64,000 nucleotides of DNA from NCBI GenBank assembly GCA_049522565.1, contig JBEKNT010000001.1, positions 677-64,676 of the forward strand. Direction: 5' to 3'. The DNA is from Acetobacteraceae bacterium (GTDB lineage: Bacteria > Pseudomonadota > Alphaproteobacteria > Acetobacterales > Acetobacteraceae). Under the pieces are notes generated by a model. That model had not been told where the DNA came from, did not search any database, and was given only the letters and a program-made list of their open reading frames with translations. Every line of letters starts with the position of its first letter. Position 1 is the first letter of the stretch. A program made the translations under genes and the position numbers. Below, piece by piece: positions 7,936-49,133 of this stretch.

Positions 7936-7939
7936 CGCG

Positions 7940-13056: not shown

Positions 13057-13079
13057 GTCTCCCCCTTGATGCGATCCGG

Positions 13080-14114
13080 TCAGACCGTGATGCGGTAGAA
13101 TCGCGCCGCCGTGTCATGGAACAACGCGCGGCGCTCGTCGGCAGAGGCACCGGCGGCCAGGCGTTTGAACGCATTCCACAGCACCGGATAGCTGCACATC
13201 GCCTTGTCCACCGGGAAGTTGCTCTCGAACATGCAGCGGTCGGCGCCGAACGCCTCGATGCAGGCGTGCATCCAAGGCTGCCAGGCCGACGCGAGTTCCC
13301 CGGACGATGGCGGCAGCACCTGGTGGTGAAAATCGAACCCGTTGACTGCCATGGCGAGACCGCCGAGCTTGACGTGGACATTCGGGCATGTGGCGAGCCA
13401 TCGCATGCTGTCATGCCACGCGGCAAAGACTTCGTGGCGCGTGCCGCGATACGGGCCGACGCCGAGCGGACCGCCGACATGATTGATGACGATCGGTGTT
13501 GCAGGATAGGCGCGCGCCAGGTCCAGCAGTTCGCCAAGCTGTGTGTGATACAGCCACGCATCGAAACTCAGGCCGTATTTCCCAAGGCGGGCGAACCCGG
13601 CCCGAAACGCCGGATCGCCCATCAAGCCCAGCGGCGGCGGCGTCGAAATGCTGGCCAGGAAGTCGGGGTGGCGCGCGGTCACCTGGCGGATGCCGCGAAA
13701 GCGACCGCCGGCCGCAGCGACATGCGCCTCGAGCACCGCGTCGACCTGCGCGCCGGCACGGAAATCGACATGCCCGACGATAGCGGCGCAGACCCGCGTG
13801 CGAGTCGCGCGTCGTTCGGCCTCCGCGGCGACCGACGCGACGAACTCCGTCTCGCCAACCGGACGCATCTCCTCCGGTCCGTCGGGGCGATAGGCCCAGA
13901 AGCATTGCAGGAACACCGTCGCGACGATGTTGTGGCCGGCGTTCAGATCGGTCAGCAGCTCGTCCAGGTAGTACTTGCTGCCCGGGCGGTCCCACAGGTG
14001 ATGGTGCGGATCGACGATCGGCAGGTCGGGATGCAGAATGTCCTCGTGCAACTTCGCAAGCCACGCCGGATTTGGATTCGGATGCTCCACGACGGATGGC
14101 TGCATTGGCGGCAT
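13080..14114 (-). CDS. Amidohydrolase-2 family metal-dependent hydrolase/decarboxylase
   Basis: PIVDPHHHLWDRPG motif. I place the start at ATG 14114 (GAGGAG 9 nt upstream), 13 nt after the TauD stop at 14128-14130. The track start 14189 would overlap TauD. Confidence 0.82.
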   Translation of the reverse strand: MPPMQPSVVEHPNPNPAWLAKLHEDILHPDLPIVDPHHHLWDRPGSKYYLDELLTDLNAGHNIVATVFLQCFWAYRPDGPEEMRPVGETEFVASVAAEAERRATRTRVCAAIVGHVDFRAGAQVDAVLEAHVAAAGGRFRGIRQVTARHPDFLASISTPPPLGLMGDPAFRAGFARLGKYGLSFDAWLYHTQLGELLDLARAYPATPIVINHVGGPLGVGPYRGTRHEVFAAWHDSMRWLATCPNVHVKLGGLAMAVNGFDFHHQVLPPSSGELASAWQPWMHACIEAFGADRCMFESNFPVDKAMCSYPVLWNAFKRLAAGASADERRALFHDTAARFYRITV

Positions 14115-14127
14115 GACCTGTGGCTCC

Positions 14128-15024
14128 TCAGGCGGCCAGAACGGGCTGCGTTCCGACGATGGTGGTGCGGTGCATGACCCGCCGCTCACGCGGGTCGTGC
14201 GGTGTTACCTGGTGCATCGTGCAGCGGTTGTCCCACATCACGACATCGTCCGGTTGCCAGTGATGGCGATAGACGAAGCGGGGCTGCGCGGCGAAGGCGG
14301 TCAGCGCGTCGATGAGACTCTTGCCGTCTTGCGCGCTCATGCCCTCGATCTCGTCGTTGTAGATCGGGCTGATGTACAGCGACTCCCGGCCGGTCACCGG
14401 ATGCCGGCGCACCATCGGCTGCCAGACCGGCGGCATGGCGGCCTTTTCTTCCTCGGTCAGCGGCTTCAGCGAGGCCAGCGTGTGCAGATGGCCGAAATTG
14501 TGCCGCGCCTTGCGTCCCTGCACCTGGCGCTTGAGCGAGTCCGGCAGGGCCTCGTAAACGGCGTACATATTGGTGAACTGCGTTTCGCCGCCGGTGCGGC
14601 TGACTTCCACGCCGTGCAGCAGCGCACCGGTGCACGGGATGGCGCGGTAGCTGCTGTCGGTGTGCCAGAACTGCGCCAGCGCGACCTGCTGCACCGTCGG
14701 GTGCTCCGGCGGCATCAGATTGCCGTCGTCGTCCACGTTGGAGACGCGGAATATCTCCGGCACGCGGCTGGAGCGGATGATCTTCTGATGAAACAGCTCC
14801 GGCTCGCCGAAGCTTCGCGTGAACGCCACATGCTCCGCGTCGGTGATGTGCTGCGCGGGGAACACCAGCACCAGATGCTGCATCCAGGCGTCATGCACGG
14901 CCTTGAAGCTGTCCGGACCCAGCGGCGCACGCATGTCGACGCCGCGCACCTCCGCGCCAAGCGCGGGATGCAGCGGGCGAACCGTCAGCCGGTCCGCAAC
15001 GGTTTTTCCCCCCGAGGATGCCAT
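14128..15024 (-). CDS. TauD/TfdA family Fe(II)/2-oxoglutarate-dependent dioxygenase
   Basis: 298-aa ORF. LTVRPLHPALGAEVRGVDM, FWHTDSSY (HxD), RRVMHRTTI. Confidence 0.9.
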   Translation of the reverse strand: MASSGGKTVADRLTVRPLHPALGAEVRGVDMRAPLGPDSFKAVHDAWMQHLVLVFPAQHITDAEHVAFTRSFGEPELFHQKIIRSSRVPEIFRVSNVDDDGNLMPPEHPTVQQVALAQFWHTDSSYRAIPCTGALLHGVEVSRTGGETQFTNMYAVYEALPDSLKRQVQGRKARHNFGHLHTLASLKPLTEEEKAAMPPVWQPMVRRHPVTGRESLYISPIYNDEIEGMSAQDGKSLIDALTAFAAQPRFVYRHHWQPDDVVMWDNRCTMHQVTPHDPRERRVMHRTTIVGTQPVLAA

Positions 15025-19020: not shown

Positions 19021-19228
19021 ATCGTGGCGGTCGGTGGGATCGATCCGTCAGCATCAGAACACCAGGTGCGTCCCGGCGAACCCATGGCGTCCTGCCTCGT
19101 CCAAGCCCGGAAGGGCCTGGGCACTTCCGACAGTTCCTTTCCGAATCCGCGTGCGGTAGGATCGTTTACCGCACGACGCGTCAAAGCGGGGCGGCGTGTG
19201 CGCGCCACCTCCTGTTGCCATCGGGCGA

Positions 19229-20365
19229 ATGGAGCGGGATGTGGGCAAACTGGTATCCGCCGCGATGATCGTGAAGAATGAAGAGCGCTTCCTCGCCGGC
19301 TGCCTGGACAGCCTCGCCGGCCTGATTGACGAGATCGTCGTCGTCGATACCGGATCCACCGATCGCAGCCGCGAGATCGCCGCCGCGCATGGCGCGCGCG
19401 TCCACCACCACGCATGGCGCGAGGATTTCTCGGCGGCGCGCAATGAGGCGCTGGACCAAGCCGTCGGCGACTGGATTCTTTATATCGATGCCGACGAACG
19501 GGTGCGTCCCTATGACCGCGCCCGGCTGGAACAGGACCTCGCCGATCCCGCCCTGTGCGCCATCACGGTACGCTTCCATCCGCGCACCGGCTACACCGCC
19601 TATCCCGAGTACCGGCTGTTCCGGCGCGATCCGCGCATCCGTTTCCGTGGCGCGATCCACGAGACAATGCTGCCCGATATCCACCGGATGGTTGCGACCG
19701 GGGAAGGACGCTGCGGATCGAGCAGGCTGACCATCGATCATCTCGGCTACGATGGCGATCAGTCGCACAAGCTGCCGCGGAACCTGGCATTGCTGGAGAA
19801 GGAGGTGCGCGTCAATCCCGAGCGGATGTATCTCTGGTGGCACCTTGGCACCGTCTATCGCGATCTCGGCCGGATCGAGGAGGCCGAAACCGCCTGGCAA
19901 ACCGGCGTCGCGATCGCCCGGCGCGCGCAACCGTGCCCGCCCGAAGCGTCGCTGTGTTTCGTCGAACTCATCCGGCGGCGTCTCGACGTCGGGCAGGACG
20001 CGCTGCCCCTGCTGCACGAGGCGATCGCCTTGCAGCCGGAAGACCCGTTCCTGCACTGGCTCATGACGCAGGCGCTGATGGCGGTCGGGCGGTATGAGGA
20101 TGCCGTGGCGGTTTTCGAACGCCTCGCCGCCATCGATCCGGAGACATTGGTGACGTATTTCGCCTACGACCGACGGGTTCTCGGTGCAGGCGCGCTGGCG
20201 GAAGCCGGCCAGTGCGCCTTCCGCATGGGCCGTTGGCGGGAGAGCGAGGCGTTCTTCCGCCGCGCCGAGTGGCGCTGCCCGGACAACCTCGAATTCCGCG
20301 TCAAACGTCAACTCGCCGCCGCGCGCGCCGCCGCCGCCGCCGCGTCGGAGGGCGCGCCGGCTTGA
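19229..20365 (+). CDS. Family 2 glycosyltransferase with C-terminal TPR-like repeats
   Basis: SAAMIVKNEERFLAGCLDSLAGLIDEIVVVDTGSTDRS...ILYIDADERV (GT2 DxD). The C-terminal half has TPR-like helices (LGTVYRDLGRIEEAETAWQTG...). Start is uncertain: ATG 19229, GTG 19241 with GGAG 6 nt upstream, or track 19196. Confidence 0.8.
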   Translation: MERDVGKLVSAAMIVKNEERFLAGCLDSLAGLIDEIVVVDTGSTDRSREIAAAHGARVHHHAWREDFSAARNEALDQAVGDWILYIDADERVRPYDRARLEQDLADPALCAITVRFHPRTGYTAYPEYRLFRRDPRIRFRGAIHETMLPDIHRMVATGEGRCGSSRLTIDHLGYDGDQSHKLPRNLALLEKEVRVNPERMYLWWHLGTVYRDLGRIEEAETAWQTGVAIARRAQPCPPEASLCFVELIRRRLDVGQDALPLLHEAIALQPEDPFLHWLMTQALMAVGRYEDAVAVFERLAAIDPETLVTYFAYDRRVLGAGALAEAGQCAFRMGRWRESEAFFRRAEWRCPDNLEFRVKRQLAAARAAAAAASEGAPA

Positions 20366-20392
20366 GCATGGTGAGCATGGCGGCTGCGCGGG

Positions 20393-21904
20393 GTGGACGT
20401 GTCTGACTGGCAGCAGCTCAAAGTCGGGTTTGCGCAGGCGGCCGACGCCGACGCGCCATTCCCGGTGGACCGCTTCGCCGGCCGGGGCGTCGTCATCTGC
20501 GCCGGTGGCGCACGCATGTTCACCTGTGCCTGGATCACCATCGCGCTGCTGCGCCGGCACCTCGGCTGCACCCTGCCCATCGAGGTCTGGCATATGGGAC
20601 CGCAGGAGATGGGTCCGCCGATGCGCGGCTTTCTCGAGGAGCTGGGGGCGGCGGTGGTGGACGCCCACGAAGTGGCCAAGCGCCATCCGGTCGAGCGCCT
20701 CGGCGGCTGGGAGCTGAAGGCCTATGCCGTGCTGCATTCGCGTTTCGCCGAGGTGCTGCTGCTCGATGCCGACAATCTTCCGGTGCGCGATCCTGCCTTC
20801 CTGTTCGAGCGGCCGGAGTATCAGGAATCCGGCGCGCTGTTCTGGCCGGACATCGTTCGTCTGGCCCGATCGAACGAGGTCTGGAGCGTCGGCGACATCG
20901 CGTACCGCGACATGCCGTCGTTCGAATCCGGCCAGATGGTGCTGGACAAGGCGCGCTGCTGGCGCGCGCTGTGCCTGACTCACTGGATCAACCAGCATTC
21001 CGACCAGTTCTACCGCTTCCTGCACGGCGACAAGGATACCTTCCTGCTGGCCTGGCTGCGGCTGCGACAACCGTTTCACCTGATACGGCATCCACCGAAG
21101 ACGCTGTACGGCACGCTGTGCCAGCGCGACACCGACGGCGCCGTGCTGTTCCAGCACCGCAATTGGGCCAAATGGATTCTGCATGGCGACAATCCGCGCA
21201 TCGCCGGGTTCCGCCTGGAAGACGAGTGCCGCGCCCTGCTGGAAGAGCTGAAGCTGGCGTGGGACGGCCGCGTGTTCAATCCGCCGCCCCGCTCCGACGC
21301 AGCCAGGTCTATCGAAAACCTGCTCGCGCGGACGCGGGATTTCACGCTCACCCGGGTGTCCTCGGACGAGCGGCGGGTCGCCTTGCTGCCGGATCACCGC
21401 GTCGGTGGGGGCGTCAGTTTCGAGCGCTATTGGTATGTCGCCGACGGCCATCCCGACCCAGAGCTGAGGATCGAAGGCGAGGGCGTGCCGGTCCACACCC
21501 TGCGTCAGGATGGCGACGGGGTGTGGCGCGGCCGGATGCTGCAACCGCCCGGCATGCCGGTAGAGCTTGCGCCGTTTGCGTCGCCGGTAACCCACCCCGT
21601 ATCCGATGCGATGTCGGAGGTGTTGTTGGCACTTCTCGACGGTGTGCTCGACATCGGCGCGGCAATGCCGACCGACCGCGAGGTCGCTCGCGATGTGCTC
21701 GGCGCACTGCGTCTTTTCTCGGCCATCGACCCCGTCGTGGCCGAGCGTCTGGCGCAGGACGACGAGGCCTGGGTGACCACGCCGGCGCGGGCGCGCCTGA
21801 TCCGGTCGGTGCGCGCGGCCCTCGCCGCGAGCGGCGATATAGCGCCGGGACGCAATTGGCTGGGCCGGGGCTTCGCGCTCACCACCGGCTATGAGCGCCT
21901 GTGA
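20393..21904 (+). CDS. GT71-like glycosyltransferase (Mnn1/Mnn2/Mnn5 alpha-mannosyltransferase-type, Mannosyl_trans3-like)
   Basis: 503-aa ORF with GTG start. GVVICAGGARMFTCAWITIALLRRHLGCTLPIEVW, FAEVLLLDADNLPVRDPAFLFE, SGALFWPD, FESGQMVLDK and HGDKDTFLLAW closely match my recollection of the fungal Mnn2/Mnn5 family signature. Confidence 0.75.
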   Translation: MDVSDWQQLKVGFAQAADADAPFPVDRFAGRGVVICAGGARMFTCAWITIALLRRHLGCTLPIEVWHMGPQEMGPPMRGFLEELGAAVVDAHEVAKRHPVERLGGWELKAYAVLHSRFAEVLLLDADNLPVRDPAFLFERPEYQESGALFWPDIVRLARSNEVWSVGDIAYRDMPSFESGQMVLDKARCWRALCLTHWINQHSDQFYRFLHGDKDTFLLAWLRLRQPFHLIRHPPKTLYGTLCQRDTDGAVLFQHRNWAKWILHGDNPRIAGFRLEDECRALLEELKLAWDGRVFNPPPRSDAARSIENLLARTRDFTLTRVSSDERRVALLPDHRVGGGVSFERYWYVADGHPDPELRIEGEGVPVHTLRQDGDGVWRGRMLQPPGMPVELAPFASPVTHPVSDAMSEVLLALLDGVLDIGAAMPTDREVARDVLGALRLFSAIDPVVAERLAQDDEAWVTTPARARLIRSVRAALAASGDIAPGRNWLGRGFALTTGYERL

Positions 21905-23643
21905 TGCCGGAACCACAAGCCGGCGTGCCGGAAACGGTGTTGATTCTCACGCCAGTGAAGAACGCGGCCCGCTTTGCGGACAGCTATTTTGCCGCCCTGG
22001 CCAGGCTCACCTACCCGGCGGAGCAAATCTCGCTGGGCCTGCTGGAGAGCGACAGCGAGGACGACAGCTTCGCCTGCTTCGCGGCCCGGCTTGCCGGTCT
22101 ATCGCCGCCCTATGCCAGCGCCAGGATCTGGCGCAAGGATTTCGGCTACCGCATTCCTCCTGCTCTGCCCCGCTGGGCCCACGCGATCCAACTGCCACGC
22201 CGCAAGGTGCTGGCGAAGGCCCGCAACCATCTGCTGTTCCGCGCGCTCGACGACCACGATTGGGTGCTTTGGCTCGACGCCGACGTCATCGACTATCCGC
22301 CGGACCTGATCCAGCGGCTGCTCGCCACCGGGCGCGACATCGTTCATCCGCACTGCGTGCAGCAGCCGGGCGGCCCGACCTTCGATCGCAACGGATGGCG
22401 GGAGCATGGGCGCGTCCTGCTGGAGGATCTGCGGGACGGCCCCGACCTGGTGCGACTCGATTCGGTCGGCGGCACGGTGCTTCTGGTACGCGCCGACCTG
22501 CATCGCGACGGCCTGATCTTTCCCAGCTTTCCTTATGGCGCGGCAAACCGGGCCGTGCGCTACCCCCACCCGCTTGGGGTCAATGGCGAGTTGGAGACCG
22601 AGGGCCTGGGGATCATGGCGCTCGACATGGGGCATCAGTGCTGGGGCATGCCGAAGCTGGAAGTGCTGCACGCGCCCGACCCGCCGTCGGCCGCTGACCA
22701 GCCGGCAACGGCGCCGACCGCCAGCGCGCCGCCGGAGTCCGCTGACAACCGCTGGCGCCGCCAGATCCGCCTGCTGTCCTGCATGTTCGAGATCGAGACC
22801 GATTCGCCGGCGGTGCGGGATGCGCTCGACTTCTACGCGGTAACGGCGGAACAGCAGGTGCCGATCGACTATCGCGAGGATCTCACCCTGACCTGGACCG
22901 GCGATGCTTTCCGGCTCGCGAGCGGCGGGGCCGCGGAGGATTTCGAGATCGACCTCAACACCATTCTCGAGTCGCTGCATCAGCGTATCCAGGACCGCGC
23001 GGTATCGGCACTTGGCGACCATGGCTTCATCGCTGCTGCGTGCGGATGGCACGGCGCTGAGCATTTCCTGCTGCTCGGTGCCGCGGGTGCCGGCAAAACG
23101 AGCCTCGCCACGCGGCTGATGCTGGATGGCTTCGACCTCTCCGGCGACGCATGGGTGTTATTGCGCGACGGTCAGGCCACCGCGTGGCCGCGGCAGTTCC
23201 AGATTACCGAGGAATCCGTTGCCCTGCTGCCGCACCTGGCGAAGATCGAGCAACTTCGTGCCATCGCAGCGCAACCGCGTGCCGGCTACCGGGTGCGGCT
23301 CGATCCGCAGCATTTGGGGAGGCCGTGGCGGATTCGCCCCGCCCCGGTCTGCGCGATCTTCGACCTCGAACCCAATTTCGGCGCTCGCAGCACCATCCGG
23401 CCCTGCGGCAAGGTCGACATGGTGCGCCGCGTCATGGCGCGGTCGCTGGCGCCGGCCGTGCAGCACGACACCTGGCTCGCCGGTCTCTGTGCCGTCGTGG
23501 AGCGGGCGGCCACCTATGTCGTTGAACTCGGCGATCTCGATAGCGCCGCGGCGGCGATCGCGGACCGGCTGTCCCGCGCTGGCGCTTCCCAGGTCACGGC
23601 CGGGCTCGAATCGGCCACCTGTGCAGAAGCGGTGCCGCGATAG
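21901..23643 (+). CDS. Fusion protein: N-terminal GT62-like (Anp1/Mnn9/Van1-type) glycosyltransferase, C-terminal HprK-like P-loop domain
   Basis: 580-aa ORF overlapping the upstream stop (GTGATG). N-terminal half: TVLILTPVKNAARF...LTYPAEQISLGLLESDSED, LAKARNHLLFRAL..WVLWLDADVIDYPPDLIQRL, GGTVLLVRADLHRDGLIFPSFPYG, ETEGLGIMALDMG. C-terminal half (about nt 22768 onward): AACGWHGAEHFLLLGAAGAGKTSLATRLMLDGFDLSGDAWVLL, like HPr-kinase-related P-loop proteins. Confidence 0.72.
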   Translation: MMPEPQAGVPETVLILTPVKNAARFADSYFAALARLTYPAEQISLGLLESDSEDDSFACFAARLAGLSPPYASARIWRKDFGYRIPPALPRWAHAIQLPRRKVLAKARNHLLFRALDDHDWVLWLDADVIDYPPDLIQRLLATGRDIVHPHCVQQPGGPTFDRNGWREHGRVLLEDLRDGPDLVRLDSVGGTVLLVRADLHRDGLIFPSFPYGAANRAVRYPHPLGVNGELETEGLGIMALDMGHQCWGMPKLEVLHAPDPPSAADQPATAPTASAPPESADNRWRRQIRLLSCMFEIETDSPAVRDALDFYAVTAEQQVPIDYREDLTLTWTGDAFRLASGGAAEDFEIDLNTILESLHQRIQDRAVSALGDHGFIAAACGWHGAEHFLLLGAAGAGKTSLATRLMLDGFDLSGDAWVLLRDGQATAWPRQFQITEESVALLPHLAKIEQLRAIAAQPRAGYRVRLDPQHLGRPWRIRPAPVCAIFDLEPNFGARSTIRPCGKVDMVRRVMARSLAPAVQHDTWLAGLCAVVERAATYVVELGDLDSAAAAIADRLSRAGASQVTAGLESATCAEAVPR

Positions 23644-23646
23644 ATG

Positions 23647-23876
23647 GCCGGGTCAAGCCCCGTAGGCGTCAGGATTAAGCCCAAGGTGAGAGGACCGTAT
23701 TGCCCACATCGTCATGGCGGGCGAAGGTCCGCCATCCACGACTGTGCCGCTCGCACGGAGGAAAGGCGGGGATGGCGGGCCTTCGCCCGCCATGACGATG
23801 AACGGATGGCCCGCGGCTCGGAGAGGATTCTTCCGTCGTCCGGCCTCAACCTGACGCCTATGGGGCTTGGCCGGCC
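23647..23876. repeat. Composite nested palindromic repeat (family A-related) filling the GT62/GT4 intergenic space
   Basis: Outer arms are GGCCGGGTCAAGCCCCGTAGGCGTCAGG (23647-23674) and CCTGACGCCTATGGGGCTTGGCCGGCC (23850-23876). Inner palindrome is CGTCATGGCGGGCGAAGGTCCGCCATCC...GGATGGCGGGCCTTCGCCCGCCATGACG (23710-23797). Confidence 0.75.
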
Positions 23877-25196
23877 ATGACGACCGGGGCCGGGTCGGGG
23901 GACGGTGCTCCCGATCGCGGCCGGGGAAGCACGCCGATACCCCGGCCGAGCCTGGTTTATGTCACGCCGCTGATGCCGCGGACCACCGGCAACGGCCTGG
24001 CGATGCGCGCGGCGGCGATCCTGGAGGCCCTGGCACAGTGCTTCGAAGTCCACCTGTTCGTGGTGCCGGTCGCCGGCGAGGCCGGGCCGCCATGCGATTT
24101 CGTCCGCCGTTATGCGGCGCGTAGCGTCGTGCTGGATCTGGCGCAGACGCTAGATCCGCTGTTCGCGCTGATTACCAGCATCCGCGATCCGGTGGAACGC
24201 GCGCAGGCCGCGTTGGCCTATCCGAAGCCGTTCCTGAGCCGCGCCTGCACCAGCGAGAGCGGGCGTCACCTCGTCGCGTGGAGCCGCGACATCCGGCCGC
24301 GGGCGGTTCACGTCATGCGGCTGTACCTCGCGCCCGTCATCGATCCCTTCCTGCGCATGCGGCAGCCGGACCGCCCGTTCCGCGTGCTCGATCTCGACGA
24401 TGACGAGGTCGTCTCGCATGAACGTCTCGCCGCGTTGTACGACGCCGCGGGTGATGCGAGCACGGCGCGGGCCATGCGTGCGGAGGCGCGGAAGTATCGC
24501 AGCTTCGCCGCCCGCTACCTGCCCGTGTTCGACCGGGTGGGCGTGTGCTCTGCGCTGGACGCGCGCCGTCTGGCCGATTGCTTCCCTGGCGCGCGGTTTG
24601 CTGTCCTGCCCAACAGCATCGGCGCGCGCCCCCGTGCGCCGCGGCCGATGGCCCGTCAGGCACTGCGGCTGTTGTTCGTCGGGACGCTCGGGTATTTTCC
24701 GAATACCGATGCGGCACTGTTCCTCTGCGGCGAGGTGCTCCAAGTCTTGCGCCGGCTGACCGATCGCGTGATTGTGATAGACGTGGCCGGGGCGGGCGAT
24801 ACCAGCGCCTTGCGAGACCTTGCCCGAAACCCGGAGGTGACGCTGCACGGATACCTGGAGGACCTGGCGCCGCTTTACACCGCAGCCGACATGGCGGTGG
24901 TCCCGCTGCGCTCCGGCGGCGGCACGCGGATCAAAATCCTTGAAGCCTTTGCGTATGGTGTGCCGGTGGTGGCCACCCGCCTCGCGGCCGAGGGCATCGC
25001 GGTGACGGATGGCGACCATCTGCTGCTCGCCGACGATGCCGAAAGCTTCGCGCGCGCTTGCCTCGCGACTGCACAACGGCCTGATCTTGCCGCCGCGCGC
25101 GCCGAACGCGCCGCGCGCCTGGTCACGACGCAGCACAGCCCCAAGCGGTTGCAGGACGCCGTTGCGGCGCTTTACGCCGGCGCGGATTTCACCTGA
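23877..25196 (+). CDS. Family 4 (GT-B) glycosyltransferase
   Basis: 439-aa ORF. LLFVGTLGYFPNTDA..., LHGYLEDLAPLYTAADMAVVPLRSGGGTRIKILEAFAYGVPVVATRLAAEGI (EX7E-type C-terminal region). The ATG abuts the right arm of the repeat, so the exact start is uncertain. Confidence 0.82.
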   Translation: MTTGAGSGDGAPDRGRGSTPIPRPSLVYVTPLMPRTTGNGLAMRAAAILEALAQCFEVHLFVVPVAGEAGPPCDFVRRYAARSVVLDLAQTLDPLFALITSIRDPVERAQAALAYPKPFLSRACTSESGRHLVAWSRDIRPRAVHVMRLYLAPVIDPFLRMRQPDRPFRVLDLDDDEVVSHERLAALYDAAGDASTARAMRAEARKYRSFAARYLPVFDRVGVCSALDARRLADCFPGARFAVLPNSIGARPRAPRPMARQALRLLFVGTLGYFPNTDAALFLCGEVLQVLRRLTDRVIVIDVAGAGDTSALRDLARNPEVTLHGYLEDLAPLYTAADMAVVPLRSGGGTRIKILEAFAYGVPVVATRLAAEGIAVTDGDHLLLADDAESFARACLATAQRPDLAAARAERAARLVTTQHSPKRLQDAVAALYAGADFT

Positions 25197-25207
25197 GAGT
25201 GCCGGGC

Positions 25208-25477
25208 ATGACCGAAACGACAACCGATCGGCCCGACAAGACGGTGGGCCTCGAAATCAATCCGGTGACCGACGGCTATATCATCTACCAAGCCGACCGT
25301 GACCGCGTGCACTACCTCAACCAGACCGCGGCGATCGTGTTCGAGTTGTGCAATGGTCACAATGCAATAGACGATCTGGCGCGAATGGTGCAGCAGGCCT
25401 GGCAGTTGACGTCGCCGCCGACCGAGGACGTGATGGAGTGCCTCGATGCGCTGCGGCAGGAGGGACTGATCCGCTGA
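25208..25477 (+). CDS. PqqD-family protein (RiPP-recognition-element-like peptide chaperone)
   Basis: About 90 aa. INPVTDGYIIYQADRDRVHYLNQTAAIVFELCNGHNAIDDLARMVQQAW...DVMECLDALRQEGLI matches the PqqD-family pattern. Alternative GTG start at 25199, 3 nt after the GT4 stop. Confidence 0.78.
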   Translation: MTETTTDRPDKTVGLEINPVTDGYIIYQADRDRVHYLNQTAAIVFELCNGHNAIDDLARMVQQAWQLTSPPTEDVMECLDALRQEGLIR

Positions 25478-25569
25478 GCGGCCCGCAGCGCTGTGCCGGT
25501 ATGCACTATTGAATTCCTTGCGTGAGGTTTGGCCGCCCCCTACCATTGCGGTAACGGAGGGGAGCCACG

Positions 25570-26448
25570 ATGGACCAGGACGAGGTTCCGGAAGTCCTGC
25601 TGGCTTGCGTGGATCAGAGCAGGCGCACTTTCGTTCGCAAGTTGATCATCGGTAGCGGGTTCGTCAGCCCGATGGTGTCGTCGTTTGCCATGGGGGGGCT
25701 GGCCCTCGCGCAAACTGTTCCGCTCGGGTCGAACCTCACCAGCCCCGCACCATCGCCGTCTCCCTCCGGTCCGATCGGGTCGAACCTTACCGGCCCGTCT
25801 CCCGCTCCTGGGCGCTCTCCGACCGGCAGCCCGGCGCCAGCGCCGTCTCCCTCCGGTCCGATCGGGTCGAACCTCACCGGGCCGTCTCCCGCTCCTGGGC
25901 GCTCTCCGACCGGCAGCCCGGCACCATCGCCGTCTCCCTCCGGCCCGATCGGGTCGAATCTTGGCGGCCCGATCGGGTCGAATCTTGGCGGTCCGATCGG
26001 GTCGAATATCCGCGGCCCGATCGGGTCGAACCTTGGCGGTCCGATCGGGTCGAACCTCGGCGGTCCGATCGGGTCGAACCTCGGCGGTCCGATTGGGTCG
26101 CACATCCGCGGCCCGATCGGGTCGAACCTCGGCGGTCCGATCGGGTCGAACCTCGGCGGCCCGATCGGGTCCCACATCCGCGGTCCGATCGGGTCGAACC
26201 TCGGAGGTCCGGCGCCATCGCCGTCTCCCGGCGGCCCGATCGTCAGCCCGGCACCAGCGCCGTCGCCCTCTGGTTCGACGCCTTCGGGATCGCCCGCCCC
26301 CGGACCGGCCAGCGCGGTGCCTGAGCCGGCCAGCGCACTGCTGCTCGGCAGCGCTGTCGCCCTGACCGGTGGTGGCCTGCTGGCGCGTCGCGTGCGCGAG
26401 CGTGTGCGCCAACTGTTGGAGAAATGGGCCGAGGGGGAGGACCGATAG
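25570..26448 (+). CDS. Tat-signal, PEP-CTERM-anchored repeat protein (Ser/Pro-rich blocks + 11 tandem GPIGS(N/H)(L/I)(G/R) octads)
   Basis: ATG preceded by GGAGGGGAG. Twin-arginine motif SRRTFVRKL (25618-) followed by a hydrophobic stretch ending ALA-Q. Two 29-aa units SPAP(S/A)PSPSGPIGSNLTGPSPAPGRSPTG. 11 consecutive octads. C-terminus AVPEPASALLLGSAVALTGGGLLARRVRERVR (PEP at 26320-26328) is a PEP-CTERM-type sorting signal, with an unusually long 11-aa tail after the basic cluster. Confidence 0.8.
   Translation: MDQDEVPEVLLACVDQSRRTFVRKLIIGSGFVSPMVSSFAMGGLALAQTVPLGSNLTSPAPSPSPSGPIGSNLTGPSPAPGRSPTGSPAPAPSPSGPIGSNLTGPSPAPGRSPTGSPAPSPSPSGPIGSNLGGPIGSNLGGPIGSNIRGPIGSNLGGPIGSNLGGPIGSNLGGPIGSHIRGPIGSNLGGPIGSNLGGPIGSHIRGPIGSNLGGPAPSPSPGGPIVSPAPAPSPSGSTPSGSPAPGPASAVPEPASALLLGSAVALTGGGLLARRVRERVRQLLEKWAEGEDR
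25741..25914 (+). repeat. 2 x 87-bp in-frame tandem repeat (a third partial copy runs to 25941)
   Basis: Near-identical DNA units encoding SPAP(S/A)PSPSGPIGSNLTGPSPAPGRSPTG. Confidence 0.85.
25942..26205 (+). repeat. 11 x 24-bp in-frame tandem repeat (GGCGGTCCGATCGGGTCGAACCTC consensus)
   Basis: Contiguous units with only synonymous or near-synonymous variation. Units 3, 7 and 10 encode the NIR/HIR variants. Confidence 0.9.
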
Positions 26449-27755
26449 CCCGTCGATCGATCAGGATCGTGCTGGCAGCGGCCGGGATAGCCGCCCTCGC
26501 GGCCGGCAGTATCGCGTTGCGGCCGTGGTTTGCGACTCCGCGCTCGGTCGGCGAAATCCGGCGACTGGTCGCAGCGCACGACAGCGACGCGGCACTTCGC
26601 GTCGCAGCCGATCTTCTGGCGCGCGACCCCGCCGATCCGCGGCTGCTTGAGATCCTGGACACGCTGTTTGCCGGGCTGTGCGACGCGGCGACCGGCGAGC
26701 CGGCGGCGCCCCGTTCCGGCGCCGCGGTACGGCGCATCACCATCACCCTGCGGAATGCCCTGCGCAACGGTCCGGAAAGTCCTGTCGCCGACGAGGTTTT
26801 CGGGAAGTTCGCCGTTGCCGGCGGTTATAACGAACTGGCTGCCGCCGCCCTGCGGCGCGCCGAGACCCTGGGCGTGCCCGCGGATCGCGTGGACGCGCCG
26901 CTGGCCCTGGCACTGCTGCGGGCTGGCCGGTATCAGGATGTGCTTCAGATGACCCAGCCCGAGGCAGCGTCTTCGCCCCGGCATCGCGCCGTGTTGCTGA
27001 CGTTGCAGGCACGTGCCTATCTCGGGCTTGCGCAGGATGCCGAGGCCCGCAACGGCTTCGCGGCGGCGCTCGCGTCCGATCCCGGTGACACCGATGCGCT
27101 CTCCCGCCTCGGCATGCTGGCGCTGTGGCACGACCGCGACGCATCCGCGGCCGCCGCCCTGCTGGCACGTGCCCGGGCGGCGGCGCCTGACGGGTTGCCG
27201 ACGCTGCGCCTGGCCGGCGAATACGACTATGCCACCGGCGACTATCGCGGCAGCGCGGCGGCCTATGGCGCTCTGGTGCGGCGCGGCACCCCCGAGACGT
27301 TCGACCCGATTCCTCCCAGCCTGGGAGCAGCCCGCGCTTTGACGTACGCGGGCGATCTGGCAGCGGCGCAGGCGGCGCTGGATGCCTCGCCGTTGCCCGC
27401 CGGCGATCCCGCATTGCGTTACTATCGCGCCTTGCTGGCCTATCGCGCCGGGGATTTCGAGCGCGCCGCCGACCTGGCGCAATCCCTTGCTGCCGCCTGG
27501 CCCAATTACCCGCCGCTGGAGTTGCTGCTTGGCGGCGCCTTGCTGGCCAGCGATCTTCCCGCGATGGCCGCGGCACGCCTGGCGCATTATGTTGCCGAGG
27601 TTCCGGGCGACGGCGCGGCACGCGACCTGCTGCAAAAGGCGCAGCGCGGCATGACCGATCCGATGGCCGCTATCGTGTCGCCGCAGGAATTGCTGGTGGC
27701 CCTCGGATTTCCGCTGTCCACTGGGGCAGGCTCTGCCGGGAAGGATGGTTTCTGA
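26424..27755 (+). CDS. TPR-repeat protein with N-terminal membrane anchor
   Basis: 443-aa ORF. RSIRIVLAAAGIAALAAGSIAL looks like a TM segment, followed by Ala/Leu/Arg-rich TPR-like helices (ARAYLGLAQDAEARNGFAAALASDPGDTDALSRLGMLAL...). The ATG overlaps the end of the upstream gene by 25 nt. Confidence 0.7.
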   Translation: MGRGGGPIARRSIRIVLAAAGIAALAAGSIALRPWFATPRSVGEIRRLVAAHDSDAALRVAADLLARDPADPRLLEILDTLFAGLCDAATGEPAAPRSGAAVRRITITLRNALRNGPESPVADEVFGKFAVAGGYNELAAAALRRAETLGVPADRVDAPLALALLRAGRYQDVLQMTQPEAASSPRHRAVLLTLQARAYLGLAQDAEARNGFAAALASDPGDTDALSRLGMLALWHDRDASAAAALLARARAAAPDGLPTLRLAGEYDYATGDYRGSAAAYGALVRRGTPETFDPIPPSLGAARALTYAGDLAAAQAALDASPLPAGDPALRYYRALLAYRAGDFERAADLAQSLAAAWPNYPPLELLLGGALLASDLPAMAAARLAHYVAEVPGDGAARDLLQKAQRGMTDPMAAIVSPQELLVALGFPLSTGAGSAGKDGF

Positions 27756-28544
27756 ATGCAGGAAGCGACTTTGCCGCCGCCGGCGCAGCAGCGGCTGGCA
27801 GCCCTGATGGACCGCGCCGTGGACACGCTGGAGGCATTGCTGGATGACCCTGGCCTGCCGGCAGAGCGGCGGGCCGACCTGGCGCTGCGCATGCTGGACC
27901 TCGTGCTGGCAGGCGAGACGGATGCGCCGCCGGCCACGCCCGTCAGCGGGCTGCTGCCGGCCCGGTGCTTCGCCATCCCGGATTTCCTGTCGCCCGACCT
28001 ACACGCGGCGGCGGTGGCGACGGCGCTCCAGTTGCGCGACCGCTTCGTTGCATCCTCGGTGACCAGCGCCGAGCCCGGCTACCGGCGCTCGCGCGTGCTG
28101 TACGAGGACTCCCTTCCGACGCTTTACCCCGCGATGCGGCAGGAGATCATGGCCGTGTTGCCGGCGGTATGCACGGCCCTGGTGCTGCCGGTCTTTGCCC
28201 CGAGTCATCTGGAACTGCATATGACGGTGCATGGCGACGGAGACTTCTTCAAGGTGCACACCGATACAGCGGCACCGGAGATCGCGCGGCGCACGATCAG
28301 CTTCGCCTATTACTTCATAGTACGGCAGCCGTGCGGTTTCAGCGGCGGGACTTTGCGCCTGTACGAAACGATCGACGCGGAGCCGCCGCGGCACGAGCCG
28401 GCGCGGTTCCAGGACGTGACGCCGGCGGACAACATGATCGTGTTCTTCGAAAGCCGCTTGCTGCATGAGGTGCTGCCGCTGCACGTTCCGTCAGGCACCT
28501 TCGAGGACGGCCGCTTCACCCTGAACGGCTGGCTGCAACGCTGA
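27756..28544 (+). CDS. 2OG-Fe(II) oxygenase, prolyl-4-hydroxylase-like
   Basis: 262-aa ORF starting directly after the TPR stop (TGAATG). FFKVHTDTA (HxD), ISFAYYF, FSGGTLRLYE, IVFFESRLLHEVLPL (distal His), GRFTLNGWL (Arg). Confidence 0.78.
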   Translation: MQEATLPPPAQQRLAALMDRAVDTLEALLDDPGLPAERRADLALRMLDLVLAGETDAPPATPVSGLLPARCFAIPDFLSPDLHAAAVATALQLRDRFVASSVTSAEPGYRRSRVLYEDSLPTLYPAMRQEIMAVLPAVCTALVLPVFAPSHLELHMTVHGDGDFFKVHTDTAAPEIARRTISFAYYFIVRQPCGFSGGTLRLYETIDAEPPRHEPARFQDVTPADNMIVFFESRLLHEVLPLHVPSGTFEDGRFTLNGWLQR

Positions 28545-28740: not shown

Positions 28741-29009
28741 GGTTGGCACGGCCGTCGGACGCTGCTGCGGGATGCGTTGCCGTGCTCGGTAGCCCAGGCG
28801 TGTTGCGGCGGCTGCGCCGGGCCGGCGCGTCACGGCGGATTCACGGAATGCTGCCGGGAAGCCTGACGATTGCGCGGAACGCGACGTGATGGTGCACGCA
28901 CCTGGAAGCGCCGGCCGATCGAGGTACGCAAAAACCCCCGCCCGGAGTGGATGAGTCGCGTCCCCCTCTGGGAGCGACACGCCGAACCATAAACGGGGGA
29001 ACCAAGCAC

Positions 29010-29759
29010 ATGAGCCTCGCCGCTGACGCCAAGGGCTTGCCACTGTTCTACCGCCAGGTCCGCATGCTCAACACGCTGCGCGACCAGGACCTGCGCCTGA
29101 TGCCGCCGTCCGATTATGGATTCGCGGCCGGCAGCAATTCCATTCCGCTGGTGGCCGAGGAGTTCTTCGCCGCCCAGGCGCACTATCCCATCGTTTTCGC
29201 CGGCACCGAACACCCATCGCCGGTCGCGATCGTCGGACTGCGCGACAACGAGAACCTGTTCGTCGATGCCGACGGTACCTGGCGCGCCGACAGCTATCTG
29301 CCGCTGTATGTCCGCCGGCATCCCTTCATCTTCATCAAGGGCAATGACGGCACGTTGCACCTTGGTATTGACGCCGCCTCGCCGCGGCTGTCCGCGGATC
29401 GCGGGGAGCGGCTGTTCGATGCCAACCAGCCGACCGCGCTGACCAACGGCCTGCTCAAATTCTGCTCCGCGTTCAGCCGCCAGCACGACATCGCGGCGGC
29501 GCTCGGCGCGGCGTTGCATGCCCATGCGCTGCTGACGGAGTACCGTTTCGACGTCACCGCGGCCGGCCAGGCGCATCGGGTCGGCGGCTGCCGTGTGGTG
29601 GCGGAGGACCGGCTCGCCGCCCTGCCGGATGACGTCTTCCTCGAATGGCGCCGTGCCGGCTGGCTGCCGATGATCACCGCGCATCTGCTCTCGCTGCGGC
29701 AATGGGAAGCGCTCGGCCGGCTGGCCATGGAGCGCCCCGTTGCTTCGCTCGCCGCCTGA
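29010..29759 (+). CDS. SapC family protein (function unknown)
   Basis: I place the start at ATG 29010 (GGGGGA 9 nt upstream). IPLVAEEFFAAQAHYPIVFAG...PVAIVGLRDNENLFVDADGTWRADSYLPLYVRRHPFIF matches my recollection of the SapC-family N-terminal signature. Confidence 0.72.
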   Translation: MSLAADAKGLPLFYRQVRMLNTLRDQDLRLMPPSDYGFAAGSNSIPLVAEEFFAAQAHYPIVFAGTEHPSPVAIVGLRDNENLFVDADGTWRADSYLPLYVRRHPFIFIKGNDGTLHLGIDAASPRLSADRGERLFDANQPTALTNGLLKFCSAFSRQHDIAAALGAALHAHALLTEYRFDVTAAGQAHRVGGCRVVAEDRLAALPDDVFLEWRRAGWLPMITAHLLSLRQWEALGRLAMERPVASLAA

Positions 29760-29820: not shown

Positions 29821-32800
29821 ATGGCGTTCCCTTTCCTGATGGCGGCACTGCGCGCGCATGGCGAGCGCCGGCAGCGGCGGTTGGCCGCGAATCGTCGGCA
29901 GGCCGAGGGCCGGCTGGTATTCGAGGCCCTGGAACCGCGAGTATTGCTCAGTGCCGACGCGCTGACCGTCGCCCTGAGCGGCGACGCGGCGCATCCCATG
30001 GCGCACGACGTGGTGGTCGAGGCCGTGTCGCAGGCATTGCCCAATATCGAGAGCGCCACGGTGCAAATGGTCCAGGTGGTGGACCTTGCGGCCAACGACC
30101 AGGTGCTCGCCAGCGCGCCGCTCGGCAGCGTCAGCGGGATCAAGATCACCTCCGGCACCGGCGACACCAGCCTGACCGTCGCTACCGCGTCCTTCGGCAC
30201 AGCCAATGTGCCGGCCATCACCTTCGCCGGCGGCAACGGCAACAACACGCTGGCCGTCACCGGCAGCAAGACCACCGACTGGAACATCACCGGCAACGAT
30301 GCGGGCACCGTCACCGGCAGTGCCGCGATCACCTTCACCGGTGTCGCCAACCTGAGCGGCGGCGCGGAGAACACCAACGTCTTTACGGTCACCCAGGACG
30401 GCGCCCTGACCGGCACGCTGAGCGGCACGCCGGACGGCAGCGCCGGCGGCAACGATTCGCTGGTTTTCAAGAGCGACACCGTCACCAATGCGGCTTTCAC
30501 CGCGGCAGGCCCGCATTCCGGCACGATCGACATGGACGGCTCGGTGTTCACCTATGCCGGGCTGACGCCGATCATTTTTTCCGGCAACGCCAGCAACATC
30601 ACCATCACCGGCACCGCCAACACCGACGACCTCACCCTCGCCGACACCAACGTTGCCGGCCAGCTCGAGGTCGCCAGCCTGAACAATTCGCTGGAGAGCG
30701 TCACCTTCGCCCGCCCCAGCGTCTCGCTGACGGTCGATTTCGGGACGGGCAGTAACGACAGCCTGCAGATCGGCACCGTGCAGCTTGCGGGTGCCAGCCT
30801 GACCGTCGCCGGCGGCAACGGCACCGACAGCATCTCGGTGGATGCCAATGCCTATGTCAGCACGCGGGACACCACCGGGAACGCACTGACCGCCCCCTCG
30901 GTCGGCAATTCCGGCGACCTGAGCCTGAGTGCCGAGACCATCACGGTCAACACCGGCGCCAAGCTCTACGCCAACGCCAATAGCGGGTTCACCTCGGGCG
31001 ACGTCACATTGGACGCCGGCTCCCAGGGCGGCGCCGGCCAGACCGCCGCCGCATCGATCGCCGTGCATGGCGCGCAGATCGTCGGCGGCGATGTCGATCT
31101 CGACTCCGCAGCCGGCGCGACCGCCACGATCACCCAGCAGACCCTGGCAACCCTTTCCCTCGATGCGACGGCGCAGACCGCGATCGACGGTGCCAGCGGC
31201 ATCCTCGCCACGGTCGGCGACGTGCAGATCGACGCCAATGTTGACGTCACCGGCCAGGTGACCGCGAACGCCGCGCCGCTCGGTTCGCTCAACGCCGATG
31301 CCGCGCTCGCGTTGTCGGACGTCACCGCCGATGGCGCCGCGACGGTGAGCGGCACCACCGTGCTCGGCGCAGCGGGCGCCGTGGATGTTCACAGCGGCAA
31401 CACCACCAGCGTCACGACGCTGGCGGACGGCAGCACGGGCGGCGCCACGGCCGTCGGCGGCGCGATCGCCCTCGCCGACGTCTCGACCGGCAGCACGGCG
31501 CAACTCGGCACCGGCGTGAAGGTCGCCGCGACCACGGTCGCGGTCGAGGCCGATTCCGCCGACGTGGTTGGCACCACCGCGAATGCCACTGCCGGGGGCG
31601 CAACCGCCAACGGTGCCGCCGCACAGGCCGCCCTGGCCGGCGCGACAACACCCGACGGCAGCGTGACCGTCGCCGCCGCACTCGCCGCCACCACGCTCAA
31701 GGACACCAACACCGCCACCTCGGACGCCACCACGGTCACGACCACCGGGGGCTTCGACGTAATCGCCGACACCAGCCGGCTGGTGGACACCGGCGCGATA
31801 GCAATCGGCGTCCAGGGCGGTCCCGGCGTCGGCGCCGCCGTCGCATTGAACGCGATCTCGGTCAGCAGCAGCGCGACGCTGGGCGACACATCGACCATCT
31901 ACGGCAACGCCGACGTGGATGTCGGCACGCTGCGCACCGGCGACATCTTCGGCGCCGTCGCGCTGTCGGGCGCCGGCAGCACCGATGTGGGCGTTGCCGG
32001 CGCGCTGGCGGTCAACGCCGTCTCCGACGACGCTTTTGCCGGCATCGCCGCCGCGGCGCAGGTCAGCCTGCCGACCGGCAGCCTGACGGTCGGCGTCGGC
32101 CAGGACGGCGACGCCATCACCGACGCCCTCGCGTTCCTCAACGGCGCGTCGCCGGATCCCGGCGTCGGCGCGTCGGTGGCGATCGCGCCGGTGCATTTCA
32201 GCGCCGAGGCCGGCGTCCAGGCCGGCGCGCAGCTTTCCGTCGGTACCGCGTCATCCGCGACCGAGAGCGACGCCAGCTTCTCGGTGGACGCCCAACGGAC
32301 GATCACCACCGTCGCCGACGGCGGCGTTGCGGACGGCACCGCCACCGCCGCCGCGCTGGCGCTGACCGTGGCCCAGGATGGCGCCTCCGCCGAACTCGAT
32401 GCCGGTGCGGTCGTGACCGTCCAAGGCAACCTCACCCTGACCGCGACCCAGACCAGCGACGTGCACACCTCCGGGTCCGCTGAGGCTGGCGCGACGGCCA
32501 CGGTGGCCGCCTTCGGCATCGTGCTCGACAACACCGATGCGACGACCGCCGCCACGGTGGTCGCGCAGGATGCGGTTTCGCTGACCGCCACGGGGCAGAC
32601 TGCCAGCACCACGCTGGCGACCGCGGGCCCGGTCGGCGCGCAGGACGGCGGACCCAACGCCGCGGCGCTGATCGCGGCGGAACTTGGCTTCATCGGCAAT
32701 CCGCCCGGCGTCACGCTGCCCACACCCGCCACCGCGGATGGCGCCTTCGGCGTCGCCGCCGCGATGGCGCTCGGCGTCGCGATCGGCCGCGTCTCCGCCA

Positions 32801-49029: not shown

Positions 49030-49043
49030 GCCCGCGCGAGAAT

Positions 49044-49098
49044 CCTCCCCCTCGGCTTGACCCGCGTCGCGGCGCAAGCCCGCAAAGCGAGGGGGAGA
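49044..49098. repeat. Intergenic palindromic repeat, family C (CTCCCCCTCG...CTTGACCCGCGTCGCGGCGCAAGCCC...CGAGGGGGAG)
   Basis: About 80% identical by eye to 51016-51078. Terminal inverted arms CTCCCCCTCG / CGAGGGGGAG. Confidence 0.7.
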
Positions 49099-49133
49099 AT
49101 GCTTCAGCCCGCACACAAGCGGGCGATGTCACC

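Follow-up and report, generated by a model that had tools for sequence, protein, structure and literature searches.

An Acetobacteraceae operon predicted to join leader-guided glycosylation and prolyl hydroxylation in the maturation of one secreted, membrane-anchored protein

Among the closest described systems, glycocins carry one or two sugars on Cys, Ser or Thr and leave the cell through a peptidase-ABC exporter. The serine-rich-repeat adhesins are Gram-positive proteins on which GtfA/B, of glycosyltransferase (GT) family GT4, initiates glycosylation at Ser/Thr; they pass through SecA2/SecY2 to an LPXTG anchor, and their system includes no kinase, no oxygenase and no recognition element (RRE) of the kind associated with ribosomally synthesized, post-translationally modified peptides (RiPPs). 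GmaR, a protein combining a GT with TPR repeats, puts GlcNAc on Listeria flagellin (PMC9638930). HprK-like kinases act on RRE-bound lasso precursors, and in pseudomycoidin hexoses are added to phospho-Ser (PMC9266682). In eukaryotes, the nucleocytoplasmic Skp1 pathway modifies a single proline of a folded protein (PMC8724618). Here we describe an eight-gene module at positions 19229-28544 of a 64,000-nucleotide stretch of DNA from an Acetobacteraceae bacterium (hereafter the window; high-GC, ~68%), which we read from sequence comparison as a leader-guided cytoplasmic glycosylation system coupled with a probable prolyl hydroxylase, both acting in the maturation of one secreted, membrane-anchored protein (probability about 0.55). 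The literature searched contained no description of this operon, none joining PEP-CTERM proteins with a prolyl hydroxylase, and no "HprK-related kinase" term; the only paper in it that unites PqqD, "HPr kinase" and glycosyltransferase is a lasso-peptide mining study.

The eight genes, labelled A to H in order, are all on the + strand. Gene A (19229-20365) encodes a GT2 enzyme of the GT-A fold with TPR repeats (Pfam Glycos_transf_2 1.8e-23, TPR_2/TPR_19), gene B (20393-21904) a soluble GT71 homologue of the Mnn2/Mnn5 type (Pfam Mannosyl_trans3 4.5e-33), gene C (21901-23643) a GT62 domain of the Mnn9/Anp1 type (Pfam Anp1 3.5e-49) followed by an HprK/PEPCK-like P-loop domain, and gene D (23877-25196) a GT4 enzyme of the GT-B fold (Pfam Glyco_trans_1_4 8.6e-25). 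Gene E (25199-25477, probable start ATG 25208) encodes a PqqD-family, RRE-type peptide-binding protein, gene F (25570-26448) the substrate, here called the cargo, gene G (26424-27755) a TPR protein (Pfam TPR_19) and gene H (27756-28544) an oxygenase dependent on 2-oxoglutarate (2OG) and Fe(II) (Pfam 2OG-FeII_Oxy_3 3.6e-13, 50.7 bits vs 27). A model that had seen only the letters and their open reading frames had made the original prediction, a bacterial hydroxyproline-rich-glycoprotein pathway; all eight of its same-strand genes are present, and its family assignments were upheld by hidden Markov models (HMMs) of Pfam and NCBIfam. The overlapping and abutting stop-start pairs that it listed were likewise confirmed in the sequence. 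The TGA stop of B overlaps the GTG/ATG start of C in CTGTGATGCC at 21899, D and E are 2 nt apart (TGAGAGTG at 25194-25201), the ATG of G at 26424 lies 25 nt within the cargo gene, and G and H abut in TGAATG at 27753. The strongest Shine-Dalgarno sequence of the operon, GGAGGGGAG, belongs to the cargo gene. Promoter and terminator scans were uninformative in this high-GC DNA, and Rfam and tRNA scans of the window found nothing. Two antisense reading frames, 19181-21916 (-) of 911 aa and 25614-27635 (-) of 673 aa, overlap the module; because the domain matches are all on the + strand, these are taken as stop-poor high-GC artefacts.

All eight genes are found in identical order in the window and its counterpart L001, in L007 and in L094 (related loci are numbered with the prefix L), and the three sets of flanking genes are unrelated: an acyl-CoA ligase upstream and SapC downstream in the window, a transposase upstream and an integrase and IS91 downstream in L007, and a lactonase upstream and ABM and LpxA downstream in L094. 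The L007 oxygenase is 77% and the L094 gene C 81% identical to the window proteins, and near-exact or exact copies of the locus are present in several metagenomes (L001-L006). Since the order is kept amid unrelated flanks, 19229-28544 is inherited as a unit, as the original prediction had supposed for the gene run, and it is very probably an operon dedicated to modifying F. The neighbouring SapC gene and the giant LEPR-XLL gene after it were considered as further members and ruled out, as neither accompanies the module in L007 or L094. Among the matches listed in the genome collection, the nearest relatives of the locus are a proteobacterial metagenome-assembled genome (MAG) and Acetobacteraceae MAGs. 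In L007 the module lies between a DUF772 transposase (1-931) and an integrase with an IS91-type transposase (12258-14368), mobile-gene flanks that suggest that the module is able to move horizontally. The L007 copy carries frameshifts in the GT71 gene and the cargo repeats, possibly long-read errors.

Comparison of gene content across loci indicates that the operon is composed of two evolutionarily separable sub-modules, one consisting of A-E with the leader of F (sub-module I) and the other of F-G-H (sub-module II). The cargo-TPR-oxygenase trio is found together in at least seven lineages and is kept at 40-77% identity in L007, L094, L008/L012 and L013. In L008/L012, from a proteobacterial MAG, the oxygenase is 67-69% and the TPR protein 54% identical; in L013, from an Acetobacteraceae MAG, the corresponding values are 52% and 40%, and A-E are absent nearby. 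The TPR-oxygenase pair is still found at 42% identity. The enzymes of sub-module I recur beside other leader-bearing genes. In L101 homologues of A (61%), B (64%), GT62 (71%), the HprK-like domain as a gene of its own (42%), D (60%) and PqqD fused to FkbM (60%) are followed by a leader-bearing pentapeptide-repeat protein. L098/L099 contain B, GT62, an HprK-like gene (49%), an FkbM methyltransferase, D and PqqD, then a 98-aa peptide with leader and PEP-CTERM signal, and have neither TPR gene nor oxygenase at the locus. In L103 a GNMT-repeat peptide with the leader adjoins A (70%). Scanning metagenomes with a DNA pattern of the cargo tail gave three short contigs, all of which carry PqqD, then the cargo, then the TPR gene. 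Because A-E and the trio each occur separately, the GTs track the leader and the Asn-x-Ser/Thr-type motif that follows it, not the Pro-rich blocks; the window would thus join a leader-linked glycosylation set to a cargo-linked hydroxylase/TPR pair. The proposed link of the four GTs to hydroxyproline (Hyp) does not hold in this light, the A-E set also occurring without the oxygenase beside leader proteins that lack a Pro-rich tract.

The leader itself defines a family (among P0241-P0297) that is covered by no Pfam or NCBIfam model. An exhaustive phmmer search of 1.84e9 (1.84 billion) representatives with a 55-aa leader query returned 57 clusters, 55 of them true; a word-indexed protein search with the leader alignment gave no match. 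The leader is all that the members share; among them are pentapeptide-repeat proteins, peptides 54-110 aa long and small PEP-CTERM peptides. Its core is the motif (S/T/x)-R-R-x-F-(L/V)-(R/K)-K-L, with RR kept in most of the 55 clusters and an acidic D-x-P-E-x-(L/V)-L upstream; in the cargo subset mean column identity reaches 72%. The window leader (aa 1-47, 25570-25710) contains SRRTFVRK at 25618-25641 and LIIGSGFVSPMVSSFAMGGLALA, with QT next after it, comprising a mildly hydrophobic stretch and an A-x-A-like site. Past the leader the one feature conserved across the wider family is an Asn, ~13 residues beyond SF(S/A)M in most members, within (S/G/T)-N-(L/I/Q/M)-(T/S/G). It stands in N-x-S/T in 29 of 52 members, vs 14.4 +/- 2.9 in shuffles. 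The smallest substrate, P0247, is the extreme case, a 98-aa peptide with ~10 mature residues (QVSNVIPT) before PEP. As the sole conserved post-leader feature across the family, the Asn-containing motif is the likely target of sub-module I.

Gene E scores 34.4 bits with the Pfam PqqD model (PF05402) vs a gathering threshold of 23.4. In eight loci (the window, L094-L098, L101 and L007, the last with a truncated PqqD gene call) the gene immediately upstream of the one with the leader encodes PqqD, which in L101 is fused to an FkbM methyltransferase. The partner PqqD family TIGR04353 was not detected for the window gene E and reached 23.2 bits in L101 (cutoff 35). Glycosylation is probably guided by the leader together with PqqD. 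A PqqD/RRE gene immediately upstream of its substrate, in company with a SunS-like GT and an HprK-like kinase as in lasso clusters, is also what might be expected of a RiPP natural-product cluster, in which the leader would be removed and the glycosylated or phosphorylated peptide released as a bacteriocin or signal, and many leader-family members are indeed only 54-110 aa long. Such a product is nevertheless very unlikely, as leader peptidase, cyclase and peptidase-ABC exporter were found in none of at least eight loci, the leader bears a near-perfect twin-arginine motif and an A-x-A site, the substrates extend to 330 aa and include folded pentapeptide-repeat domains, and at the C-terminus the cargo variants have a membrane anchor or a PEP-CTERM signal.

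All four GTs of sub-module I have DxD or E-x7-E-type motifs, and none has a membrane segment. Gene A (DxD motif IDADE), 61-82% identical in L007, L094, L101 and L103, has as its nearest solved structures Listeria GmaR (1.5e-27), SunS (3.6e-18) and 7msk (5.6e-15), and by this homology is a candidate initiating polypeptide GT. Gene B scores 115 bits with Mannosyl_trans3 vs a gathering threshold of 22, has an LDADN motif and is 61-64% identical in L092, L098 and L101; its Pfam family, PF11051, is GT71 (PMC5225481). The GT62 domain of gene C (~21928-22710) scores 168 bits with Anp1 (PF03452) vs 28.8, has an LDADV motif and matches yeast Mnn9 (3ZF8) at 3.7e-21. The C-terminal domain of C (~22744-23586) was modelled with a predicted local distance difference test score (pLDDT) of 82, and Foldseek matched it to ATP-PEPCK (3.9e-6) and HprK/P (1e-3); Walker-A residues G117 and K118 are invariant in nine homologues, and the model identifies the domain as an HprK/PEPCK-like P-loop fold with an intact Walker A. 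In L098 and L101 the GT62 and HprK-like domains are separate genes. PDB sequence searches with B, D and E yielded nothing useful, and no solved relative of B.

Bacteria have many Anp1 homologues, in which fusion to GT71, HEAT, TPR or FkbM domains is frequent. One pair of GT71 and GT62 genes with an HprK-like domain, in L092 (2701-5885), stands beside IS1, GT8 and CsgG genes without PqqD or a leader protein. In the plasmid collection, GT71-GT62 fusions were found in Azospirillum only, again without PqqD or a leader protein; the gene at L104 7387-9756 (A. lipoferum 4B plasmid AZO_p6) encodes a ~790-aa "glycosyltransferase" with a GT62 match in its C-terminal part and is taken as such a fusion by analogy with the fused bacterial homologues.

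The nearest NCBIfam model of gene D (55-79% identical in L007, L098 and L101) is TIGR03087, stp1, the GT of the PEP-CTERM/XrtA system (3.8e-29), and that of gene G is PrsT. PEP-CTERM proteins are associated with exopolysaccharide (EPS) loci (PMC1569441), and on that basis the module could be imagined as a PEP-CTERM/XrtA exopolysaccharide locus in which the GTs build a free polysaccharide and F, G and H are accessory matrix components. We find this hardly credible: the stp1 and PrsT matches fall far below their cutoffs, the three complete contexts all lack a priming phosphoglycosyltransferase, a flippase, a polymerase, Wza/Wzc and an ABC exporter, A belongs with the polypeptide GTs, and the GT set, which lacks membrane segments, tracks the leader and PqqD. 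The modification enzymes are cytoplasmic, since no signal peptide or membrane segment is present in the operon except for the cargo's C-terminal helix and the N-terminal helix of G. This agrees with the premise of the original prediction that modification takes place in the cytoplasm.

The cargo combines the leader with a repetitive, Pro-rich body and a C-terminal anchor. In the window it has 14 G-S-(N/H)-(L/I) repeat units with Ser/Pro blocks, a pre-PEP Pro/Ser block (26203-26319), a PEP motif (26320-26328), a transmembrane helix (cargo aa 254-272), and a basic cluster with a conserved tail (26386-26445). The predicted SPAPSPSPSGP, SPAPAPSPSGP and GPSPAPG blocks are present; the leader has the conserved motif S/T-R-R-x-F-(V/L)-(R/K) and the C-terminus is PEP-CTERM-like, in keeping with the proposed export by twin-arginine translocation (Tat) of a PEP-CTERM protein. 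Nine cargo homologues have the leader, Pro-rich block, PEP-CTERM signal and tail in common and differ in their repeats, which by lineage are GPIGSNLG, SPVTSNTGNPGTSNT, PTTFAPTF, or none. Their leader elements are an acidic D-x-P-E-x-L-L, (S/T)-R-R-x-F-(V/L)-R-K, a stretch ending in SF(A/T)MGG and an A-x-A-like site, and the tail has the consensus R-V-R-x-R-V-R-x-x-L-E-(K/R)-W. The (S/A/G/T)-Pro block lies immediately before PEP, and all seven cargo variants analysed carry it, with 17-31% Pro. A collagen-like reading of the GPIGSNLG repeats was ruled out, the period being 8 and not 3. In the cargo DNA there are tandem arrays of 87 bp x2.5 and 24 bp x11.3. The cargo is 292 aa long in the window and 255 aa in L001, the other seven genes being 100% identical, and this difference in repeat number (window 25740-26211; L001 7926-8693) reflects either fast repeat turnover or assembly collapse. 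As the repeat number varies between assemblies, exact look-up of the window cargo returned no record.

Gene G, which always lies between cargo and oxygenase where the contig reaches, has a single N-terminal membrane/signal segment (aa 12-34) and an N-terminus, M-(G/D)-(R/G), that is conserved in L094, L097, L095, L096, L008 and L013. G is probably a periplasmic, PrsT-like protein. In gene H the residues H168, D170, H237 and R253, forming the HxD...H + R signature, are invariant in 14 homologues. Searched against PDB sequences, the H profile matched DdPhyA (6T8M, 1.5e-9), PPHD (4IW3, 1.6e-3) and PHD2 (~0.02); 6T8M is Dictyostelium PhyA (PMC7864055). A structural model of H (pLDDT 80) gave Pseudomonas PPHD, human PHD2 and Trichoplax PHD as the top Foldseek matches, with TM-scores of 0.5-0.7, and neither CrP4H, vCPH nor collagen prolyl 4-hydroxylase (P4H) was among the profile matches at E<=1 or the best 50 Foldseek matches. 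Profile and model together identify H by homology as a prolyl hydroxylase domain (PHD)-type protein prolyl hydroxylase, of structural family VIII of the 2OG oxygenases. The original prediction had drawn on the P4H-type enzymes of plant and algal glycoproteins, whereas profile and fold are of the PHD/PhyA type, and had named clustering with non-protein hydroxylases as grounds for refutation; H groups with protein prolyl hydroxylases, not with small-molecule ones. With the Asn motif assigned to sub-module I, the one plausible target left to the hydroxylase that the cargos share is the Pro-rich block.

That H hydroxylates prolines of the cargo is a tentative assignment, at odds just short of even, the substrate being suggested by operon linkage. 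H could instead act on another protein, in oxygen sensing or regulation, with a translation factor or TPR protein as its substrate, and merely share the operon. PPHD, its closest fold, hydroxylates EF-Tu, members of the subfamily stand alone in Rhodopila and many cyanobacteria, and the N-terminal helical hairpin is kept in the homologue P0023, placed by tblastn in a Lyngbya MAG. We nevertheless assign this alternative a low probability, because H abuts or overlaps the TPR gene just after the cargo in every proteobacterial locus of at least 42% identity except L014, and the Pro-rich block is the only feature besides leader and anchor common to all cargo variants.

A literal hydroxyproline-rich-glycoprotein pathway, with H making Hyp in Ser-Pro and Ala-Pro and the four GTs building Hyp-linked glycans, would account for a Pro-rich cargo, a PHD/PhyA-type oxygenase and enzymes that are all cytoplasmic, and the best solved relative of H, DdPhyA, makes the Hyp that is later glycosylated on Skp1. 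In addition, the divergent neighbour of the L013 trio (6175-8193, -) encodes a fusion of GT2 with a PF11397 "GlcNAc" domain (2.7e-68), which we take to be GT60, the family of the Skp1 hydroxyproline GlcNAc-transferase. GT60 enzymes are polypeptide alpha-GlcNAc-transferases (PMC8724618, whose reference list includes the cloning of the Skp1 Hyp GlcNAc-transferase). This literal pathway is unlikely for the window, however. A-E occur without the oxygenase beside substrates that have no Pro-rich tract (the pentapeptide-repeat protein and the 98-aa peptide), the trio occurs without A-E nearby, A is closest to GTs that modify Ser, Thr or Cys, and H is not a plant or collagen P4H. The window has no GT60, and the plant Hyp-specific families GT95 (HPAT), GT31 and GT77 are likewise not among the Pfam assignments of the module. 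The L013 locus fits the split into two sub-modules, having a cargo without Asn, no A-E and a GT60-family gene instead. What stands of the original prediction is a probable modification operon with a PHD-type hydroxylase; the sugars are probably on the Asn/Ser/Thr motif rather than on hydroxyproline, which is improbable as their attachment site.

Several observations weigh against a leader-guided glycosylation system joined to a prolyl hydroxylase. The leader is assigned to Tat by resemblance to the motif: no TAT-signal HMM match was obtained at E<=10, apart from a faint formate_TAT hit (0.21, P0253). The PEP-CTERM match of the window cargo is borderline (TIGR02595, 19.6 bits vs 16), Pfam PF07589 is not reached by it (the L008 and L013 cargos score 20.9-21.3 vs 20.7), the conserved 15-aa tail past the basic cluster is atypical for PEP-CTERM proteins, and no exosortase was found within the 64-kb window. 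Gene A is a homologue and not an equivalog member of the SunS family TIGR04195 (68.7 bits, cutoff 350), gene D is not a member of TIGR03087 (102 bits vs 316), nor is G a member of the PrsT family TIGR02917 (5.4e-30, 104 bits, cutoff 312), and the match of TIGR04352 (HprK_rel_A) in gene C is weak (2.5e-6, 26.8 bits vs a cutoff of 200; 30.1 bits in L098). The suggestion of mannose draws on analogy with fungal enzymes that are ~20-30% identical. As regards linkage, the pairing of the enzymes with non-cargo leader proteins is based on three contexts (L101, L098/L099 and L103), in all of which enzymes are present; around the L008/L012 trio 10 kb contain neither GTs nor PqqD, the L013 cargo is without Asn and its leader is divergent though the twin arginines are kept, and a GT60 neighbour was seen once, on a divergently transcribed gene. 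Rhodopila (L014) and at least ~75 cyanobacteria have members of the H subfamily alone, with no shared context; the substrate of H need not be the cargo. A scan of the genome collection with the oxygenase alignment gave, among the matches listed, mostly cyanobacteria and three useful proteobacterial loci; the cyanobacterial homologues were dropped as informative contexts because they have no common neighbours.

From the genes present, their assigned families and folds, the intact catalytic motifs and the conserved patterns of linkage, we infer the following biochemical steps for leader-guided glycosylation coupled to hydroxylation. PqqD, whose adjacency suggests leader binding, would bind the acidic N-terminal part of the leader and recruit the enzymes, and may also hold back the Tat signal until modification is complete. 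Gene A would place the first sugar on the post-leader motif (S/G/T)-N-(L/I/Q/M)-(T/S/G), iterated 14x in the window cargo as G-S-(N/H)-(L/I), and B, C and D would extend the glycan, which by homology with yeast Mnn2/Mnn9 is probably mannose-rich; the P-loop domain of C may phosphorylate the peptide or the glycan. H would hydroxylate prolines of the Ser/Ala/Gly-Pro block before the PEP-CTERM signal. The modified protein would then be exported by Tat, a route that takes bulky pre-assembled substrates, its C-terminal helix would anchor it with the conserved tail in the cytoplasm, and G would handle the product in the periplasm, with processing possibly by an exosortase encoded elsewhere. The fullest form of the proposal, an unrecognised bacterial class in which RRE-guided glycosylation before Tat export sets (phospho)mannan-like glycans on an Asn-x-Ser/Thr-type motif and a PHD-type hydroxylase completes an envelope-anchored hydroxyproline "mannoprotein", is doubtful.

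Downstream of the module lies a separate system (28947-56265, +) that starts with SapC (28947-29759). It includes a 6402-aa Ala/Gly/Thr-rich protein (29821-49029, +) with an N-terminal LEPR-XLL motif (NF012209, 32 bits), in whose first and last 1000 aa no Pfam domain was found. Three HlyD genes follow, the first a fusion with GAF (49011-51002), the second a fusion with an HExxH intramembrane protease of the daptide type (51082-53346) and the third on its own (55219-56265), with a truncated SecA-like ATPase (53177-55378) before the last. The SecA-like reading frame overlaps the preceding protease-HlyD frame by ~170 nt (53177-53346), and its true start is probably further downstream. The system has the look of an export machinery devoted to the giant protein. 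Further along are a fused CysN/CysC, that is, sulfate adenylyltransferase with adenosine 5'-phosphosulfate kinase (57879-60047, +), and a DctP/DctQM transporter of the tripartite ATP-independent periplasmic (TRAP) type (60272-63252, +); no link of either to the module was found.

If the proposed mechanism is true, PqqD of this operon would be, as far as known, the first recognition protein in the RiPP style to direct a multi-step glycosylation whose substrates are secreted proteins of full size, and the operon the first proposed case of glycosylation preceding Tat export. The widespread bacterial GT62/GT71 homologues of yeast mannan enzymes, at present without a function, would gain one, and a bacterial PHD-type prolyl hydroxylase would have a structural, not regulatory, substrate. 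The 50-aa leader and compact enzyme set could serve as a portable tag-and-enzyme toolkit for glycoengineering, and mass spectrometry can be applied directly to the chemistry, because natural substrates are as small as 98 aa, with ~10 mature residues preceding the anchor.

Parts of the operon have counterparts in known systems. Like glycocin enzymes (SunS/SunA, ThuS) and GmaR, it has a soluble GT2 followed by a helical/TPR domain and would glycosylate a polypeptide in the cytoplasm; in contrast to the glycocin systems, it has three additional GTs, PqqD, a domain resembling a kinase and a leader with twin arginines. The pairing of an HprK-fold protein with a PqqD-family protein is shared with the lasso tailoring kinases (PadeK/ThcoK/PsmK) and the HPr-rel-A system, defined computationally (TIGR04352 with TIGR04353), whereas the operon scores 27-30 bits vs 200 and 23 vs 35 with these models, has no lasso cyclase or protease, and has a secreted protein as its substrate. 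The GT62 and GT71 partnership of yeast mannan polymerase (Mnn9/Van1/Anp1) and Mnn2/Mnn5 recurs in bacteria, often in one fused protein; the fungal enzymes are Golgi type-II membrane proteins extending N-glycans, whereas those of the operon are soluble and one is fused to a kinase-like domain.

With regard to the hydroxylase, the Skp1 pathway (PhyA, Gnt1/GT60 and further soluble GTs) likewise joins a PHD-type enzyme to soluble cytoplasmic GTs acting on one protein, but the window GTs are GT2, GT71, GT62 and GT4, not GT60, GT74 and GT77, and are linked to the leader and not to the hydroxylase. Plant and algal extensins and arabinogalactan proteins similarly involve a repetitive substrate rich in Ser-Pro and Ala-Pro, a 2OG prolyl hydroxylase and several GTs; the plant pathway, however, operates in the lumen of the endoplasmic reticulum and Golgi, the operon's would operate in the bacterial cytoplasm, and H is not of the collagen/plant P4H type. 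As in the PEP-CTERM/XrtA system, the cargo ends in a PEP motif, transmembrane helix and basic signal that narrowly reach the NCBIfam cutoff, and G resembles PrsT and D resembles stp1, but the window is without exosortase or EPS export genes, the cargo has an extra tail, and its leader resembles the twin-arginine and not the Sec type. The serine-rich-repeat adhesins offer a parallel for a repetitive, Ser-rich surface protein that is glycosylated by soluble GTs before export by a tolerant route. The operon resembles a hybrid of glycocin/GmaR glycosylation, RRE-guided RiPP tailoring, the PhyA/Gnt1 steps of the Skp1 pathway and the glycosylate-then-export order of the adhesins, and it is a member of none of these systems.

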